Shown one piece after another: positions 1 through 9,463 of a DNA stretch of 9,463 bases (the first letter of the stretch is position 1; each line of letters starts with the position of its first letter). Under the pieces are notes generated by a model, which saw nothing but the letters and a program-made list of their open reading frames with translations, ran no database searches and was not told the origin of the DNA. The stretch is from a virus (lineage: Duplodnaviria; Heunggongvirae; Uroviricota; Caudoviricetes), in IMG/VR virus record IMGVR_UViG_2681813268_000008; one strand, given 5' to 3'. The position numbers were made by a program, and so were the translations under genes.

Positions 1-1541
1 CGCCTGCTGGTTCAGATACAGCGTAACGGTGGCTGGGTGACGGAAAAAGACATCACCATTAAGGGCAAAACCACTTCGCAGTATCTGGCCTCGGTGGTGG
101 TGGGTAACCTGCCGCCGCGCCCGTTTAATATCCGGATGCGCAGGATGACACCGGACAGCACCACAGACCAGCTGCAGAACAAAACGCTCTGGTCGTCGTA
201 CACCGAAATCATCGATGTGAAACAGTGCTACCCGAACACGGCGCTGGTCGGCGTGCAGGTGGATTCAGAGCAGTTCGGTAACCAGCAGGTGAGTCGCAAT
301 TATCATCTTCGCGGGCGCATTCTGCAGGTGCCGTCGAACTATAACCCGCAGACGCGGCAATACAGCGGTATCTGGGACGGAACGCTTAAGCCAGCATACA
401 GCAACAACATGGCCTGGTGTCTGTGGGACATGCTCACTCATCCGCGCTACGGCATGGGGAAACGTCTTGGTGCGGCAGATGTGGACAAATGGGCGCTGTA
501 TGTCATCGGCCAGTACTGCGACCAGTCAGTGACGGACGGATTTGGCGGCACGGAGCCGCGCATCACCTGTAACTCTTACCTGACCACACAGCGTAAGGCG
601 TGGGATGTTCTCAGTGATTTCTGCTCGGCGATGCGCTGTATGCCGGTATGGAACGGACAGATGCTGACGTTCGTGCAGGACCGACCGTCGGATAAGGTGT
701 GGACCTATAACCGCAGTAATGTGGTGATGCCGGACGATGGCGCGCCGTTCCGCTACAGCTTCAGCGCCCTGAAGGACCGCCATAATGCCGTTGAGGTGAA
801 CTGGATTGACCCAGATAACGGCTGGGAGACGGCGACAGAGCTTGTGGAGGATACGCAGGCCATTGTCCGTTACGGTCGTAACGTCACGAAGATGGATGCC
901 TTTGGCTGTACCAGCCGGGGGCAGGCACACCGAGCCGGGCTGTGGCTGATTAAAACGGAACTGCTGGAAACGCAGACCGTGGACTTCAGCGTGGGCGCAG
1001 AAGGGCTTCGCCATGTACCGGGTGATGTCATTGAAATCTGCGATGATGATTATGCCGGTATCAGCACCGGTGGTCGCGTACTGGCGGTGAACAGCCAGAC
1101 CCGGACGCTGACGCTCGACCGTGAAATCACGCTGCCGTCCTCCGGTACCACGCTGATAAGCCTGGTTGACGGAAGTGGCAATCCGGTCAGCGTGGAGGTC
1201 CAGTCCGTCACCGACGGCGTGAAGGTGAAAGTGAGCCGGGTTCCTGACGGCGTTGCAGAATACAGCGTGTGGGGGCTGAAGCTGCCGACGCTGCGCCAGC
1301 GTCTGTTCCGCTGCGTGAGTATCCGTGAGAACGACGACGGCACGTATGCCATCACCGCCGTGCAGCATGTGCCGGAAAAAGAGGCCATCGTGGATAACGG
1401 GGCACACTTTGACGGTGACCGGCGCGGCACGGTGAATGGTGTCACGCCGCCAGCGGTGCAGCATCTGACCGCCGAAGTCACCGCAGACAGCGGGGAATAT
1501 CAGGTGCTGGCGCGATGGGACACGCCGAAGGTGGTGAAGGG
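1..1541 (+). pseudogene. J: Tail tip / host specificity protein J, internal fragment A. The 5' end is off-window; J homology stops at 1541, and the frame-1 ORF then reads through the inverted segment to a stop at 1990-1992.
   Basis: Frame-1 translation (RLLVQIQRNGGWVTEKDITIKGK...[18 protein letters not shown]...[19 protein letters not shown]) matches the middle of lambda J as I recall it. After 1541 the + strand is the reverse complement of J sequence, so the provided ORF 37..1992 is a chimeric read-through. Confidence 0.85.
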
Positions 1542-2390
1542 ATATTCCCCGCTGTCTGCGGTGACTTCTGCGGTCAGGTGTTGCACTGCTGGCGGAGTGA
1601 CACCATTCACCGTGCCGCTCTGGTCGCCGTCAAAGTGCGCCCCGTTATCCACGATGGCTTCTTTCTCCGGCACATGCTGCACGGCAGTGATGGCATACGT
1701 ACCGTCATCGTTCTCACGGATACTCACGCAGCGGAACAGGCGCTGGCGCAGCGTCGGCAGCTTCAGCCCCCACACGCTGTATTCTGCAACGCCGTCAGGA
1801 ACCCGGCTCACTTTCACCTTCACGCCGTCGGTGACGGACTGGACCTCCACGCTGACCGGATTCCCCTGTCCGTCAACCAGGCTTATCAGCGTGGTGCCGG
1901 AGGATGGCAGCGTGATTTCACGGTCGAGCGTCAGTGTCCGCGTCTGGCTGTTCACCGCCAGCACGCGCCCGCCGATGCTGATACCCGCATAGTCATCATC
2001 ACAGATTTCAATGACATCGCCCGGTACATGGCGAAGCCCTTCAGCACCCACGCTGAAATCCACGGTCTGCGTCTCCAGCAGTTCCGTTTTAATCAGCCAC
2101 AGCCCGGCGCGGTGTGCCTGCCCCCGGCTGGTACAGCCAAAGGCATCCATCTTCGTGACGTTACGACCGTAACGGACAATGGCCTGCGTATCTTCAACAA
2201 GCTCTGTCGCCGTCTCCCAGCCGTTATTCGGGTCAATCCAGTTCACCTCAACGGCATTATGACGGTCCTTCAGGGCGCTGAAGCTGTAGCGGAACGGCGC
2301 GCCATCATCCGGCATCACCACATTACTGCGGTTATAGGCCCACACCTTATCCGACTGTCGGTCCTGCACGAACGTCAGCGTCTGCCCGTT
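1542..2390 (-). pseudogene. J: Inverted internal fragment of J (J residues ~[17 protein letters not shown]...DSGEY) on the minus strand.
   Basis: Minus-strand ORF 1500..2369 translates to [15 protein letters not shown]...LVDGQGNPV...FDGDQSGTV...DSGEY, colinear with the + strand J copies. Reverse complement of 1542-1960 equals 4531-4949 with one mismatch; reverse complement of 1962-2390 is about 97% identical to 2392-2820 (by-eye alignment). Confidence 0.8.
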
Positions 2391-3241
2391 AAACGGGCAG
2401 ACGCTGACGTTCGTGCAGGACCGACCGTCGGATAAGGTGTGGACCTATAACCGCAGTAATGTGGTGATGCCGGATGATGGCGCGCCGTTCCGCTACAGTT
2501 TCAGCGCCCTGAAAGACCGCCATAATGCCGTTGAGGTGAACTGGATTGACCCGGATAACGGCTGGGAGACGGCGACAGAGCTTGTGGAGGATACGCAGGC
2601 CATTGTCCGTTACGGTCGTAACGTCACGAAGATGGATGCCTTTGGCTGTACCAGCCGGGGGCAGGCACACCGCGCCGGGCTGTGGCTGATTAAAACGGAA
2701 CTGCTGGAGACGCAGACCGTGGATTTCAGCGTGGGTGCTGAAGGGCTTCGTCATGTACCGGGCGATGTCATTGAAATCTGCGATGATGACTATGCCGGTA
2801 TCCGCACCGGCGGGCGCGTGCTGGCGGTGAACAGCCAGACCCGGACGCTGACGCTCGACCGTGAAATCACGCTGCCGTCCTCCGGTACCACGCTGATAAG
2901 CCTGGTTGACGGAAGTGGCAATCCGGTCAGCGTGGAGGTCCAGTCCGTCACCGACGGCGTGAAGGTGAAAGTGAGCCGGGTTCCTGACGGCGTTGCAGAA
3001 TACAGCGTGTGGGGGCTGAAGCTGCCGACGCTGCGCCAGCGTCTGTTCCGCTGCGTGAGTATCCGTGAGAACGACGACGGCACGTATGCCATCACCGCCG
3101 TGCAGCATGTGCCGGAAAAAGAGGCCATCGTGGATAACGGGGCACACTTTGACGGTGACCGGCGCGGCACGGTGAATGGTGTCACGCCGCCAGCGGTGCA
3201 GCATCTGACCGCCGAAGTCACCGCAGACAGCGGGGAATATC
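1542..3241. repeat. Large imperfect inverted repeat (near-palindrome): arm 1542-2390 against arm 2392-3241, with a single unpaired base at 2391. The first ~34 bp on each side of the centre are perfectly complementary.
   Basis: Sequence around the centre is 'cctgcacgaacgtcagcgtctgcccgtt a aacgggcagacgctgacgttcgtgcagg'. Arms show about 97% identity in the proximal 430 bp by eye. Confidence 0.85.
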
Positions 3242-4539
3242 AGGTGCTGGCGCGATGGGACACGCCGAAGGTGGTGAAGGGTGTGAGCTTCCTGCTTCGC
3301 CTGACCGTGGCAGCGGACGACGGCAGTGAGCGGCTGGTCAGCACAGCCAGGACGACGGAAACCACATACCGCTTCAGGCAGCTGGCGCTGGGGAATTACA
3401 GTCTGACAGTCCGGGCGGTAAATGCCCGGGGGCAGCAGGGCGATCCGGCGTCGGTATCGTTCCGGATTGCGGCACCGGCAGCGCCTGTCACTATTGAACT
3501 GATACCGGGGTATTTTCAGATAACGGCGGTCCCGAAACTGGCTGTATATGACCCGACGGTGCAGTTTGAGTTCTGGTTTTCGGAAAAGCGGATTGCGGAT
3601 ATCAGGCAGGTTGAAACCAGCGCCCGCTATCTTGGCACGGCGCTGTACTGGATAGCCGCCAGTATCAATATCAGGCCGGGCCATGATTATTATTTTTACG
3701 TTCGCAGTGTGAACACCGTTGGCAAATCGGCATTTGTGGAGGCCATCGGTCGGGCGAGCGATGATGCAGAAGGTTATCTGAATTTTTATAAAGGGTTGAT
3801 CAATAAAACGCATCTCGGCAAGGAGTTGTGGACGCAGATTGATAACGGTCAGCTTGCGCCGGACCTGACTGAAATCAGGACGTCCATTACGAATGTCAGC
3901 AATGAAATCACGCAAACCGTCAATAAAAAACTGGAAAATCAGAGTGCTGCAATCCAGCAGATACAGAAAGTTCAGGTTGATACAAATAATAACCTGAACA
4001 GCATGTGGGCTGTGAAGCTGCAACAGATGAAGGACGGACGCCTTTATATTGCGGGTATCGGTGCCGGTATTGAGAATACGCCAGCAGGAATGCAGAGTCA
4101 GGTGCTGCTGGCGGCAGACAGGATTGCGATGATTAATCCTGCGAATGGCAACACAAAGCCGATGTTTGTTGGTCAGGGCGATCAGATATTCATGAACGAC
4201 GTGTTCCTGAAATGCCTGACGGCTCCGACCATTACCAGCGGCGGTAATCCTCCGGCATTTTCCCTGACACCTGGCGGACGGCTGACGGCGAAAAATGCCG
4301 ATATCAGCGGTAACGTGAACGCGAACTCCGGGACGCTCAACAACGTCACGATTAATAAGAACTGTCGGGTTCTGGGAAAATTGTCCGCGAACCAGATTGA
4401 AGGCGATCTCGTTAAAACAGTGGGCAAACCTTTCCCACGGGACTCCCGGGCACCGGAGAGGTGGCCATCAGGGACCATTACCGTCAGGGTTTATGACGAT
4501 CAGCCGTTTGATCGGCAAATTGTTATTCACTGGCGGTGA
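2392..4539 (+). pseudogene. J: J fragment B, from NGQTLTF to ...[11 protein letters not shown], then junction-derived codons HWR and a stop at 4537-4539. Lacks the J N-terminus and the final ~100 codons.
   Basis: Frame-1 ORF 2413..4539. 2401-2824 is ~96% identical to 661-1084 and 2825-3281 is 100% identical to 1085-1541. The distal part (3282-4528) is a divergent allele of 4990-6238. The stop arises at the B/C junction. Confidence 0.8.
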
Positions 4540-6238
4540 ACAGCCAGACGCGGACACTGACGCTCGACCGTGAAATCACGCTGCCATCCTCCGGCACCAC
4601 GCTGATAAGCCTGGTTGACGGACAGGGGAATCCGGTCAGCGTGGAGGTCCAGTCCGTCACCGACGGCGTGAAGGTGAAAGTGAGCCGGGTTCCTGACGGC
4701 GTTGCAGAATACAGCGTGTGGGGGCTGAAGCTGCCGACGCTGCGCCAGCGCCTGTTCCGCTGCGTGAGTATCCGTGAGAACGATGACGGTACGTATGCCA
4801 TCACTGCCGTGCAGCATGTGCCGGAGAAAGAAGCCATCGTGGATAACGGGGCGCACTTTGACGGCGACCAGAGCGGCACGGTGAATGGTGTCACTCCGCC
4901 AGCAGTGCAACACCTGACCGCAGAAGTCACCGCAGACAGCGGGGAATACCAGGTGCTGGCGCGCTGGGATACGCCGAAGGTGGTGAAGGGCGTGAGCTTT
5001 ATGCTTCGCCTGACCGTGGCAGCGGATGACGGCAGTGAGCGGCTGGTCAGCACAGCCCGGACGACGGAAACCACATACCGCTTCAGGCAGCTGGCTCTGG
5101 GAAATTACAGTCTGACAGTCCGGGCGGTAAATGCGTGGGGGCAGCAGGGCGATCCGGCGTCGGTATCGTTCCGGATTGCCGCACCGGCAGCGCCATCGCG
5201 GATTGAGCTGACGCCGGGCTATTTTCAGATAACCGCCACGCCGCATCTTGCGGTTTATGATCCGACTGTACAGTTTGAGTTCTGGTTCTCGGAAAAGCGG
5301 ATTGCGGATATCAGGCAGGTTGAAACCAGCGCGCGTTATCTTGGTACGGCGCTGCACTGGATAGCCGCCAGTATCAATATCAAACCGGGCCATGATTATT
5401 ATTTTTACGTTCGCAGTGTGAACACCGTTGGCAAATCGGCATTCGTGGAGGCTGTCGGTCGGGCGAGCGATGATGCGGAAGGTTACCTGGATTTTTTCAA
5501 AGGAGAAATCGGGAAAGCACATCTGGCCCAGGAGCTGTGGACGCAGGTTGATAACGGTCAGCTTGCGCCTGATCTGGCTGAAATCAGGACGTCCATTACG
5601 AATGTCAGCAATGAAATCACGCAGACCGTCAATAAAAAACTGGAAAATCAGAGCGCGGCAATCCAGCAGATACAGAAAGTTCAGGTTGATACAAATAATA
5701 ACCTGAACAGCATGTGGGCCGTGAAACTGCAGCAGATGAAGGACGGACGCCTTTATATTGCGGGTATCGGAGCCGGTATTGAGAATACGCCAGCAGGTAT
5801 GCAGAGTCAGGTGCTTCTGGCTGCTGACCGGATTGCGATGATTAATCCTGCGAATGGCAACACAAAGCCGATGTTTGTTGGTCAGGGCGATCAGATATTC
5901 ATGAACGAAGTGTTCCTGAAATACCTGACGGCTCCCACCATTACCAGCGGCGGTAATCCTCCGGCATTTTCCCTGACACCGGACGGGCGGCTGACGGCGA
6001 AAAATGCCGATATCAGCGGTAACGTGAATGCGAACTCCGGGACGCTCAACAACGTCACGATTAACGAAAACTGTCGGGTTCTGGGAAAACTGTCCGCCAA
6101 CCAGATTGAAGGCGATCTCGTTAAAACAGTGGGCAAAGCTTTCCCCCGGGACTCCCGTGCACCGGAGCGGTGGCCATCAGGGACCATTACCGTCAGGGTT
6201 TATGACGATCAGCCGTTTGACCGGCAGATTGTTATTCC
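2819..6238. repeat. Tandem direct repeat of a ~1709-bp J unit (2819-4528 and 4529-6238). Copies are divergent, roughly 90-95% identical in the distal half; the junction is at 4528/4529.
   Basis: 'ctggcggtgaacagcc' occurs at 2821 and 4530; 'attgttattc' at 4519-4528 and 6228-6237. The period of 1709 is not a multiple of 3, which explains the frameshift and stop at 4537-4539. Confidence 0.8.
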
Positions 6239-6524
6239 GGCGGTGGCATTCAGCGGCGCTAAACATGAGAAAGAGCATACTGATATTTACTCCTCATGCC
6301 GTCTGATAGTGCGGAAAAACGGTGCTGAAATTTATAACCGTACCGCGCTGGATAATACGCTGATTTACAGTGGTGTTATTGATATGCCTGCCGGTCACGG
6401 TCACATGACACTGGAGTTTTCGGTGTCAGCATGGCTGGTGAATAACTGGTATCCCACAGCAAGTATCAGCGATTTGCTGGTTGTGGTGATGAAGAAAGCC
6501 ACCGCAGGCATCAGTATCAGCTGA
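4530..6524 (+). CDS. J: J C-terminal fragment C ([10 protein letters not shown]...[10 protein letters not shown]), frame 3, with the native J stop at 6522-6524. Includes the distal receptor-binding region; N-terminally truncated and out of frame with fragment B.
   Basis: ORF 4536..6524 (GTG at 4536 is an internal Val codon in native J). Colinear with fragment B at a constant offset of 1709 bp (2821 to 4530; 4522 to 6231). Ends in a J-like C-terminus followed by a terminator hairpin. Confidence 0.8.
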
Positions 6525-6542
6525 ATTTTATAACCCATATAC

Positions 6543-6570
6543 GGGCGCCAGAAATGGCGCCTTTTTTATT
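6543..6570 (+). terminator. Rho-independent terminator-like hairpin immediately downstream of the J stop.
   Basis: GC stem 'ggcgcc' (6544-6549), loop 'agaaat', stem 'ggcgcc' (6556-6561), followed by 'ttttttatt'. Confidence 0.6.
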
Positions 6571-6591
6571 GCAGAAAAGCGAGAGGTAATT

Positions 6592-7191
6592 ATGCGTAAA
6601 GTTTGTGCAGCCATTTTGTCCGCAGCCATCTGTCTGTCCGTATCCGGTGCGCCTGCATGGGCGTCTGAACATCAGTCCACACTGAGCGCGGGGTATCTTC
6701 ATGCCCGTACGAACGCTCCCGGCAGCGATAATCTGAACGGGATTAACGTGAAATACCGTTATGAGTTTACGGACGCGCTGGGGCTGATTACGTCCTTCAG
6801 TTATGCCAATGCTGAGGATGAGCAAAAAACGCACTACAGCGATACCCGCTGGCATGAAGATTCCGTGCGTAACCGCTGGTTCAGCGTGATGGCGGGGCCG
6901 TCTGTACGCGTGAATGAATGGTTCAGCGCGTATGCGATGGTGGGTGTGGCTTACAGCCGTGTGTCGACTTTCTCCGGGGATTATCTCCGCGTAACTGACA
7001 ACAAGGGGAAAACGCACGATGTGCTGACCGGAAGTGATGACGGTCGCCACAGCAACACGTCTCTGGCGTGGGGGGCTGGCGTGCAGTTTAACCCGACCGA
7101 ATCCGTGACCATTGACCTTGCTTATGAAGGTTCCGGTAGTGGCGACTGGCGAACGGATGCATTTATTGTTGGTATCGGATACCGTTTCTGA
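6592..7191 (+). CDS. lom: Lom-family outer membrane protein (Ail/Lom/PagC/OmpX beta-barrel family), a prophage-encoded moron.
   Basis: 199-aa ORF with an N-terminal signal-peptide-like segment (MRKVCAAILSAAICLSVSGAPAWA), a conserved C-terminus (...AYEGSGSGDWRTDAFIVGIGYRF) matching lambda Lom as I recall it, position between J and stf as in lambda, and an RBS-like 'gagagg' 7 nt upstream of the ATG. Confidence 0.88.
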   Translation: MRKVCAAILSAAICLSVSGAPAWASEHQSTLSAGYLHARTNAPGSDNLNGINVKYRYEFTDALGLITSFSYANAEDEQKTHYSDTRWHEDSVRNRWFSVMAGPSVRVNEWFSAYAMVGVAYSRVSTFSGDYLRVTDNKGKTHDVLTGSDDGRHSNTSLAWGAGVQFNPTESVTIDLAYEGSGSGDWRTDAFIVGIGYRF

Positions 7192-7295
7192 CAACAGACG
7201 CCGATTTATCTTCTGTAAATATTGTTATGATACGCAGGTTCATCCACCTTATGGGGTGAACTGCGTTTGAGGAAACGTAAAGTTACACTGTCCTG

Positions 7296-7329
7296 AAGCC
7301 CGTGGCGTCACTGCTGCGGGCTTTTTTTA
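7296..7329 (+). terminator. Rho-independent terminator-like hairpin between lom and stf.
   Basis: Stem 'aagcccg' (7296-7302) pairs with 'cgggctt' (7317-7323), followed by a T7 run (7322-7328). Confidence 0.55.
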
Positions 7330-7342
7330 TTGGTGGAAAAGT

Positions 7343-9274
7343 ATGACAGTAAAAATTTCTGGCGTGCTTAAAGATGGCACAGGAAAACCAGTACAGAACT
7401 GCACCATTGTGCTGAAGGCCAGACGAACCAGCAGCACGGTGGTGGTGAACACGGTGGCCTCTGAAAATCCGGATGAAGCCGGACGTTACAGCATGGATGT
7501 TGAGCATGGCCAGTACAGCGTCACCCTGCTGGTTGAAGGTTTTCCGCCTTCACATGCCGGGATCATTACCGTCTATGAAGGTTCCAGACCCGGTACGCTG
7601 AATGATTTTCTCGGTGCCATGACGGAGGATGATGTCCGACCGGAGGCACTGCGCCGCTTTGAGCAGATGGTGGAAGAGGTGTCACGTAACGCCTCCGCGG
7701 TTGCACAGAACACGGCAGCCGCGAAGAAGTCAGCCAGCGATGCCAGCATATCTGCCAGTGAGGCGGCAACCCATGCGACTGATGCTGCAGGCTCAGCACG
7801 TGCAGCCAGCACATCAGCCGGGCAGGCCGCGACGTCGGCTCAGTCAGCGTCTTCCAGCGCAGGAACGGCATCAACAAAGGCTACTGAAGCATCAAAAAGT
7901 GCTGCCGCTGCAGAGTCCTCAAAAAGAGCGGTGGCTACCAGTGCCGGTGCGGCGAAAACGTCAGAAACGAATGCGGCTGCGTCACAACAATCAGCAGCCA
8001 CTTCTGCATCCACCGCGACCACGAAAGCGTCAGAAGCAGCCACTTCAGCACGGGATGCGGCGGCCTCAAAAGAGGCAGCGAAGACATCCGAAACGAATGC
8101 GAAAGCCTCGGAAACCAGCGCAGAATCCTCAAAAACGGCTGCCGCATCGTCCGCCAGTTCGGCGGCGTCATCGGCATCATCTGCGTCTGCTTCAAAAGAT
8201 GAGGCGACCAGACAGGCGTCAGCAGCAAAGGGCAGCGCCACGACGGCATCCACGAAGGCGACAGAGGCAGCTGGCAGTGCGACGGCGGCAGCTCAGAGCA
8301 AAAGTACGGCGGAATCCGCGGCAACGCGCGCCGAGACAGCGGCAAAACGGGCAGAGGATATTGCATCCGCCGTGGCGCTTGAGGATGCGAGCACGACGAA
8401 AAAGGGGATAGTACAGCTCAGCAGTGCGACCAACAGTACGTCTGAAACGCTGGCGGCAACGCCAAAGGCAGTAAAATCAGCCTATGACAATGCAGAGAAA
8501 CGTCTGCAGAAAGACCAGAACGGCGCTGATATACCCGATAAGGGACGCTTCCTGAACAACATTAACGCGGTCAGTAAAACAGACTTTGCTGATAAGCGTG
8601 GTATGCGTTATGTGCGGGTTAACGCTCCTGCAGGTGCAACATCTGGAAAATATTACCCTGTTGTTGTTATGCGTTCTGCTGGCTCAGTAAGCGAACTGGC
8701 ATCAAGGGTCATTATCACCACGGCAACGCGAACCGCAGGCGATCCGATGAATAACTGCGAGTTTAACGGATTTGTTATGCCTGGTGGCTGGACTGACAGG
8801 GGGCGTTATGCTTATGGAATGTTCTGGCAATATCAAAACAATGAACGAGCCATCCACTCAATAATGATGAGTAATAAGGGCGATGATTTGCGCTCTGTGT
8901 TCTATGTTGATGGCGCTGCTTTCCCTGTTTTTGCGTTTATCGAAGATGGCCTGTCAATATCCGCACCTGGTGCTGATCTCGTTGTTAATGATACGACCTA
9001 TAAGTTTGGGGCAACAAATCCAGCGACTGAATGTATCGCGGCGGACGTTATCCTTGATTTTAAGAGTGGGCGTGGTTTTTATGAGTCTCATTCGTTAATC
9101 GTTAACGATAATTTGTCGTGCAAAAAACTTTTTGCCACAGACGAAATTGTAGCGCGTGGTGGTAATCAGATTCGAATGATAGGTGGGGAGTATGGTGCAT
9201 TATGGCGTAATGATGGCGCTAAAACTTACCTGCTGCTTACCAATCAAGGTGATGTTTATGAAGTGGCACACTGA
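7343..9274 (+). CDS. stf: Side tail fiber protein Stf, with a lambda-Stf-like N-terminus and Ala/Ser-rich repeat shaft. The C-terminus appears truncated by an IS insertion; the last codons and stop come from the IS end.
   Basis: 643-aa ORF. The N-terminus (MTVKISGVLKDGTGKPVQNCTIVLKARR...GFPPSHAGIITVYE...) and the low-complexity A/S/T-rich region match lambda Stf (orf-401) from memory. The ORF ends ...LLLTNQGDVYEVAH*, where 'tgaagtggcacactga' (9259-9274) is the start of the IS terminal repeat. Confidence 0.82.
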   Translation: MTVKISGVLKDGTGKPVQNCTIVLKARRTSSTVVVNTVASENPDEAGRYSMDVEHGQYSVTLLVEGFPPSHAGIITVYEGSRPGTLNDFLGAMTEDDVRPEALRRFEQMVEEVSRNASAVAQNTAAAKKSASDASISASEAATHATDAAGSARAASTSAGQAATSAQSASSSAGTASTKATEASKSAAAAESSKRAVATSAGAAKTSETNAAASQQSAATSASTATTKASEAATSARDAAASKEAAKTSETNAKASETSAESSKTAAASSASSAASSASSASASKDEATRQASAAKGSATTASTKATEAAGSATAAAQSKSTAESAATRAETAAKRAEDIASAVALEDASTTKKGIVQLSSATNSTSETLAATPKAVKSAYDNAEKRLQKDQNGADIPDKGRFLNNINAVSKTDFADKRGMRYVRVNAPAGATSGKYYPVVVMRSAGSVSELASRVIITTATRTAGDPMNNCEFNGFVMPGGWTDRGRYAYGMFWQYQNNERAIHSIMMSNKGDDLRSVFYVDGAAFPVFAFIEDGLSISAPGADLVVNDTTYKFGATNPATECIAADVILDFKSGRGFYESHSLIVNDNLSCKKLFATDEIVARGGNQIRMIGGEYGALWRNDGAKTYLLLTNQGDVYEVAH

Positions 9275-9463
9275 ATTTGGCCACCTGAACAGAGGTGATA
9301 TGCTCACCTCAGAACAACACAGGTGCTCCAATGAAAAAAAGAAATTTCAGCGCAGAGTTTAAACGCGAATCCGCTCAACTGGTTGTTGACCAGAACTACA
9401 CGGTGGCAGATGCCGCCAAAGCTATGGATGTTGGCCTTTCCACAATGACAAGATGGGTCAAAC
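9259..9463 (+). mobile_element. IS3-family insertion sequence, IS911-like, left end. Partial; it continues beyond the window.
   Basis: Terminal sequence begins 'TGAAGTGGCACACTGAATTTGGCC...' (a TG... end typical of the IS3 family), followed 72 bp later by an ORF beginning [44 protein letters not shown], which I recognise as IS911 OrfA. Confidence 0.75.
9331..9463 (+). CDS. insN: IS3-family (IS911-like) transposase OrfA, N-terminal helix-turn-helix part. Partial; the 3' end is off-window.
   Basis: ATG at 9331; translation [44 protein letters not shown]... is characteristic of IS911/IS3-group OrfA. There is no stop before the window end, so it is absent from the provided ORF track. Confidence 0.75.

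Follow-up and report, generated by a model that had tools for sequence, protein, structure and literature searches.

Introduction

Long palindromes are inviable in wild-type E. coli according to the established literature referred to in PMC4787754, and the references given there describe 246-bp palindromes in the E. coli chromosome that are cleaved by SbcCD. A second kind of described system is the tandem inversion duplication (TID) of Salmonella (Kugelberg et al. 2010, as treated in PMC4417113), in which, as presented there, the copies come from one template, are identical when formed and are joined at quasi-palindromic junction homology. The third comparison is with assembly software. The Sanger pipeline of Velvet, SSPACE and GapFiller, which sorts and renames contigs by size, was behind 299 public S. 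sonnei assemblies, which average 405 contigs. Both SSPACE and GapFiller are described by the authors of the pipeline as greedy tools that may introduce false joins (PMC5320598). Furthermore, the GapFiller authors reported that base-by-base extension stalls in repeats with equal-ratio alternatives (PMC3446322).

In this work, the window, i.e., the whole stretch of DNA that was analyzed, is the entire contig CXEW01000190.1 (9,463 bp) of the draft assembly GCA_001260755.1 of Shigella sonnei. An earlier note on this DNA had described a foldback inside the prophage tail-tip gene J and had left it open whether this was a real rearrangement or an assembly chimera. Of these two possibilities it is the chimera that gained ground, by the repeat-only nature of the contig, the normal locus in sister assemblies, an IS boundary at the arm start and junctions that are unique to this contig. 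Judged from sequence comparison, the foldback is most probably (about 92%) a misassembly of paralogous, IS-disrupted prophage J genes and not a biological palindrome.

Context of the contig

Exact look-up of the 662-aa ORF at 4536-6524 leads to this contig, which starts within J, breaks off on the right within the gene of an IS3-family transposase, and consists of multi-copy prophage DNA only in between. A complete E. coli genome has, in the median, 6 places that match the genes J, lom, and stf. The exact stf product was found on only six contigs, all of them 5-10 kb in length, and four contigs among the stf matches listed come from one accession batch (CXEW, CXEX, CXEE, and CXEJ). The window contig and each of its sister contigs are recorded in two samples, which may be one assembly deposited twice or an independent second one.

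Positions in J are given below on the scale of the 3,480-nt J genes of the natural loci L002 and L010, APEC E12049, and E. coli FDAARGOS_943. The last of these is the closest complete-genome relative of two of the J alleles in the window (X and Z, see below). In FDAARGOS_943 (L013, NZ_CP065615.1), a frameshifted ipaH-family T3SS effector gene is located just downstream of J-lom-stf, at 10321-11966, and this ipaH context is Shigella/EIEC-like.

Structure of the foldback and its junctions

The foldback is present in the deposited sequence as it had been described. Its arms occupy 1541-2390 and 2392-3241, are 850 nt long and 96% complementary (95.8% identity in self-BLAST), and are separated by the single base 2391. 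The column-by-column comparison gave the claimed 34 bp of perfect pairing on each side of this base, i.e., a palindrome core of 34+1+34 or 69 nt, and the first arm mismatch at 2356/2426. The arms had been said to be non-identical, with an identity of ~97% close to the center, and the count agrees: there are 13 mismatches in the 429 positions of the proximal half (2392-2820, copy C; 97.0%) and 23 in the 421 positions of the distal half (94.5%). The distal part of the inverted arm had also been matched to a copy further downstream, at 4531-4949. The match is right but its position was off by one base, since 1543-1961 is the 100% reverse complement of 4530-4948 over 419 nt. Both arms begin at the same codon of J, at nt 1057 (AAC GGG CAG, NGQ), and the J reading frame is indeed destroyed; the only J-sense ORFs are at 37-1992, 2413-4539, and 4536-6524, and none of them is an intact J. 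In silico folding of the central 299 nt as DNA gives an almost perfect hairpin with an energy of -199 kcal/mol vs. -50 ± 3.8 kcal/mol for shuffled sequences, which is far beyond chance.

Two structures were found that the earlier note did not contain. A second foldback pairs 652-1501 with 1541-2390 across a 39-nt spacer and turns at 1541-1543, and at a third unnatural junction, at 4529, the sequence returns in direct orientation from J nt 3193 to J nt 1486. The window thus contains a forward-inverted-forward triplication, composed of 652-1541 (+), 1543-2390 (-), and 2392-3281 (+), and two sets of direct repeats, where 652-1541 equals 2392-3281 (98%) and 2821-4538 resembles 4530-6245 (93%).

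A forward-inverted-forward order with two foldback junctions is the layout of TIDs and of replication U-turns in bacteria and organelles, and it is this layout that gives some weight to a biological origin. The contig would then describe a real inverted triplication with a direct duplication (TID or DUP-TRP/INV-DUP), private to this isolate and produced as the template was switched serially between three or four prophage J copies at ectopic sites; the palindrome would be tolerated because its arms are 4% diverged. Such an origin also fits the many IS elements and rearrangements of S. sonnei and the true break of one J copy at J1057. However, the predicted hairpin of -199 kcal/mol is the kind of substrate that SbcCD cleaves, and we consider a real rearrangement very unlikely, also with regard to the alleles, breakpoints, and sister isolates discussed below.

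The window can be divided into four pieces that are joined at three junctions. The first piece, P1 (1-1541, + strand), covers J406-1946 of an allele designated X, begins at the contig end inside J, and is collinear with the J gene of E. coli FDAARGOS_943 at 98.4% identity. Junction 1 (1502-1542) is a foldback with a loop of ~39-42 nt, in which J nt 1946 in forward orientation meets J nt 1904 in reverse orientation, with an 'A' at 1542 between them. The second piece, P2 (1543-2390, - strand), forms the left palindrome arm and covers J1057-1904 of allele Y; it is 99.4% identical over 848 nt to natural J genes and collinear with positions 81-928 of the sister contig L015. Junction 2, at the palindrome center, is the single 'A' at 2391, which matches neither natural neighbor because J nt 1056 is naturally a G, or a C when read on the opposite strand. 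The third piece, P3 (2392-4528, + strand), forms the right palindrome arm with its continuation and covers J1057-3193 of allele Z, collinear with the J gene of FDAARGOS_943 over query positions 1-2137 at 98.3% identity. P1 and P3 are identical over 1081-1541 and 2821-3281. Junction 3 is again a single 'A', at 4529, between J nt 3193 and J nt 1486, where the natural base would be the C that follows 3193 or the G that precedes 1486 in allele Y.

The fourth piece, P4 (4530-9463, + strand), runs from J1486 to the end of J and then through lom and stf. Its J part (4530-6524) covers J1486-3480 of allele Y up to the natural stop codon and is 99.95% identical to the J genes of L002 and L010 (one mismatch in 1995 positions) and 99.98% identical to L015. 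The lom gene for an Ail/Lom outer-membrane protein (6592-7191, + strand; PF06316) follows in its natural place, and the exact Lom protein is widespread, always downstream of an intact J gene. The side tail-fiber gene stf (7343-9274, + strand; PF08400, PF03406) encodes 643 aa here, compared with 1,008 aa in related loci, and is unmatched in L002 over its C-terminal part. The start of an IS3-family transposase orfA (9331-9463, + strand; PF01527, HTH_Tnp_1) brings the contig to its right end inside the IS, in which the sister contigs also end. This start is located 56 nt past the stf stop codon (window 9275-9463).

The bases at 2391 and 4529 are not templated by their neighbors, while that at 1542 is ambiguous, as the closest X-type allele naturally continues with an A as well. 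There is no useful microhomology at any of the junctions, with at most 1 nt of possible homology at junction 1. Junctions with an untemplated base and no microhomology speak against template switching, as do three illegitimate joins within 3 kb that are all placed where the paralogues differ.

Allelic composition of the J fragments

There are 23 variable sites in the distal arm half (J1506-J1878). P1 agrees with P3 and P2 with P4 at every one of them. Moreover, P2/P4 are of the L002 type at 23/23 sites, and P1/P3 are of the FDAARGOS_943 type at 21/23 (the exceptions are J1580 and J1707). Upstream of J1486, P1, P2, and P3 each represent an allele of their own (X, Y, and Z, respectively). From exactly J1486 on, the coordinate where P4 starts, P3 does not differ from P1. 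The statement of the earlier note that the foldback is not a self-copy and joins different J alleles in opposite orientation is thus supported by the 23-site pattern. The idea of the inverted arm as a mosaic, with the distal 420 bp taken from elsewhere, is not needed, as the whole arm is one natural allele with 99.4% identity to natural J.

By its sequence, 4530-6524 is the continuation of the allele in the inverted arm. When P2 is flipped and merged with P4 through the 419-nt identical overlap, giving a composite of the reverse complement of 1543-2390 followed by 4949-9463, the product is collinear with natural J genes at 99.7% over 2,425 nt. The inverted arm thus represents the natural upstream stretch of the J gene that ends in 4530-6524. 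P2 might also derive from a further J copy and not from the P4 locus, judging from its differences from L015 at 5 sites.

Since the arms are different alleles, snap-back on one molecule cannot have made them. The same result weakens the reading of a real rearrangement, as the three copies are different natural alleles that do not go back to one template. With regard to TIDs, three copies with an inverted middle one are present in the window, but their pairwise identities of 93-98% depart from single-template near-identity. In addition, the parent sequence at J1050-1060 (TATGG/AACGGG) contains no matching inverted repeat of the quasi-palindromic kind.

The allele Z segment (2392-2820, compared with 652-1080 and 1962-2390) is a fine mosaic of X-type and Y-type bases with four private ones. 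Such a pattern could come from gene conversion between the prophage J copies in nature or from a mixing of paralogues by the assembler.

Sister assemblies and the J1057 boundary

Three sister contigs (L015, L016, and L017) start inside or at J, are collinear with the composite of flipped P2 and P4, and do not contain the foldback. In the case of L015, the alignment with the composite spans 5,363 nt with 6 mismatches and 0 gaps. The sister assemblies that share the J-lom-stf locus differ from each other at single sites, e.g., J1362. The missing foldback in clonal sister isolates argues against a real rearrangement, although it is compatible with an event private to this isolate.

In L015 (CXEX01000209.1), J starts exactly at nt 1057, after 80 nt (1-80) that match the istB end of IS21-family elements. 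The Y-type J in this contig is thus cut at nt 1056/1057 by the IS21-family istB end. Because the J of L015 abuts the IS21-family end at this position, the arm start of the palindrome at J1057 is a genuine IS/repeat boundary in the lineage. It also follows that this J copy is a 5'-truncated remnant in the lineage and that the prophage at this locus is a decayed one. An IS boundary such as J1057 is a place where contigs from short reads are expected to stop. A real rearrangement, on the other hand, would require breaks at an identical nucleotide in two different J copies, and this nucleotide, J1057, is at the same time the IS boundary in the sister. As J1057 is an IS boundary, a common break there is natural for an assembly graph and not for biochemistry.

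The ends of P2 and P1, at J1904 and J1946, each lie directly ahead of a variant site, 1905 and 1947, respectively. In L016 (CXEE01000211.1, ~370-400), a run of G takes the place of 29 natural bases at J~1479-1507, with the length preserved. This poly-G stretch reads as an obvious junk patch at the coordinate of junction 3 in a contig of the same batch.

Searches for the junctions in other genomes

For junctions 1 and 2, no place covering ≥80% of a 300-nt probe was found in 5,426 complete E. coli genomes, a collection without S. sonnei. Because the source is S. sonnei and the collection is E. coli only, this negative result is weaker than it first looked. No copy of the 31-mer across the palindrome center, with any base at the center, is present in the contig collections of viruses, metagenomes, and species-representative genomes. 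Junction 3 also has no equivalent in the 5,426 complete E. coli genomes, and the sole match, in E. coli FY26, was rejected as an occurrence of it because the tandem J fragments there are in another arrangement. In this 'complete' FY26 chromosome (NZ_CP101741.1, L014), the last ~6.7 kb consist of three tandem 5'-truncated J copies that are annotated as incomplete pseudogenes, which may be a circularization or assembly artefact or a real tandem array.

At the protein level, two junction-dependent ORF products are on record, deposited as CST11851.1 and CST11886.1 under the name "host specificity protein [Shigella sonnei]", and both are singletons among ~15 billion proteins. No record was returned by exact look-up for the ORFs of 708 aa and 700 aa (2413/2437-4539) or for an antisense ORF of 289 aa.

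Origin of the foldback

The features expected of a chimera are found together in the window: the draft contig is bounded by repeats, its pieces rebuild a normal locus, the breakpoints lie at boundaries or variants, and the junctions are not reproduced in the other assemblies searched. The misassembly most probably took place as follows. The S. sonnei genome would hold at least three copies of the lambdoid tail-tip gene J (X, Y, and Z) with 92-98% identity, at least one of which would be cut by an insertion sequence. The assembler would have broken the J copies at the repeat boundaries and at the sites of copy difference. Scaffolding and/or gap closure would then have strung the fragments together wrongly, as X forward, Y inverted, Z forward, and Y forward, leaving one arbitrary base per join. 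The duplicated 419- and 461-nt blocks would be greedy extensions into false gaps that stopped where the paralogues differ. A filled or converted 1-N scaffold gap is an attractive explanation for the single 'A' at the joins, although the base at 1542 could be a natural X base.

The circumstantial evidence suggests that Velvet, SSPACE, and GapFiller are likely the pipeline responsible. The contig numbers fit size-sorted naming, with 190 for a contig of 9.46 kb and 209-211 for those of 5.0-5.4 kb. A search of literature and supplements for the accession returned no paper or pipeline. A head-to-head join with a 1-nt filler is an unusual scaffolding outcome, and multi-mapping of read pairs alone does not obviously give the head-to-head orientation. 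For the arm start, a de Bruijn bubble with k=35 was also considered, as there are 34 identical bases before the variant at J1091. It was dropped because the IS21-family junction at J1057 suffices, and it is possible that the bubble effect and the IS boundary at J1057 both contributed.

An artificial foldback could also have arisen before assembly. Sequencing libraries are known to give inverted chimeric reads at a low level, and fold-back or chimeric fragments from library preparation could be faithfully assembled while being absent from the genome. The extra single 'A' per join recalls the chemistry of end-repair and A-tailing. However, random library chimeras are each seen once, below the coverage cut-offs of assembly, and three joins in a 9-kb contig at repeat or variant boundaries, with the paralogues meeting at the same coordinate, point to the graph or the scaffold as their source. 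We therefore hold a library-level origin to be even less probable than a real rearrangement.

Two other mechanisms that diversify phage genes were rejected. An invertible tail-fiber segment of the Gin/Cin/Pin/Min kind does not fit, as no recombinase is found among the window gene calls and what is inverted is a fragment from within J that repeats its flanking sequence; a resolvase was seen only in the unrelated locus L006, beside stf. A diversity-generating retroelement (DGR) does not fit either, because there is no reverse transcriptase (RT) among the window gene calls, the repeats are 0.4-2 kb in length, and the differences involve all base types and match pre-existing natural alleles.

Significance of the two readings

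The chance that the contig is correct as deposited is very small. If it were, an S. sonnei isolate would carry a stable 850-bp near-palindrome with a 1-nt center, within a triplication of three prophage J copies. It would be a case of natural multi-template switching and of a rare long palindrome surviving in a wild enterobacterium. As an artefact, the window shows how invented foldbacks, duplicated gene fragments, and truncated "host specificity protein" ORFs can get into draft assemblies when a genome has many IS elements and prophages, as in Shigella, and that ORFs of this kind, here the two deposited ones, enter the protein databases as singletons. Genome scans should discount long palindromes on short, repeat-only contigs.

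Comparison with known systems

The window shares with the palindromes of the Leach laboratory, as they are described in the references in PMC4787754, a perfect core and a hairpin in silico, here in an 850-bp near-palindrome compared with 246 bp. Those palindromes were engineered and are cleaved by SbcCD at each replication, whereas the window is known from the deposited sequence alone. With TIDs and U-turns, as far as these are presented in PMC4417113, the window has in common the three copies with an inverted middle one, the two foldback junctions, and one loop of ~40 nt. It differs from the single-template TID copies in that three alleles are involved, junction 2 has no homology, and the center is untemplated. 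The J array of E. coli FY26 resembles the window in joining 5'-truncated J fragments of different alleles with 92-98% identity. On the other hand, all of its copies are direct, its junctions follow the J stop codon, and there is no foldback.

In the case of the greedy scaffolding and gap-closing false joins (PMC5320598, PMC3446322), two points are unlike the documented pipelines: the pipeline behind the window is one that we infer, and closure of a head-to-head join by a single base is unusual. The likeness lies in a repeat-only and repeat-bounded contig with ends at variant boundaries, in duplicated blocks that are identical within the contig, and in a junk patch that a sister assembly has at the same coordinate.
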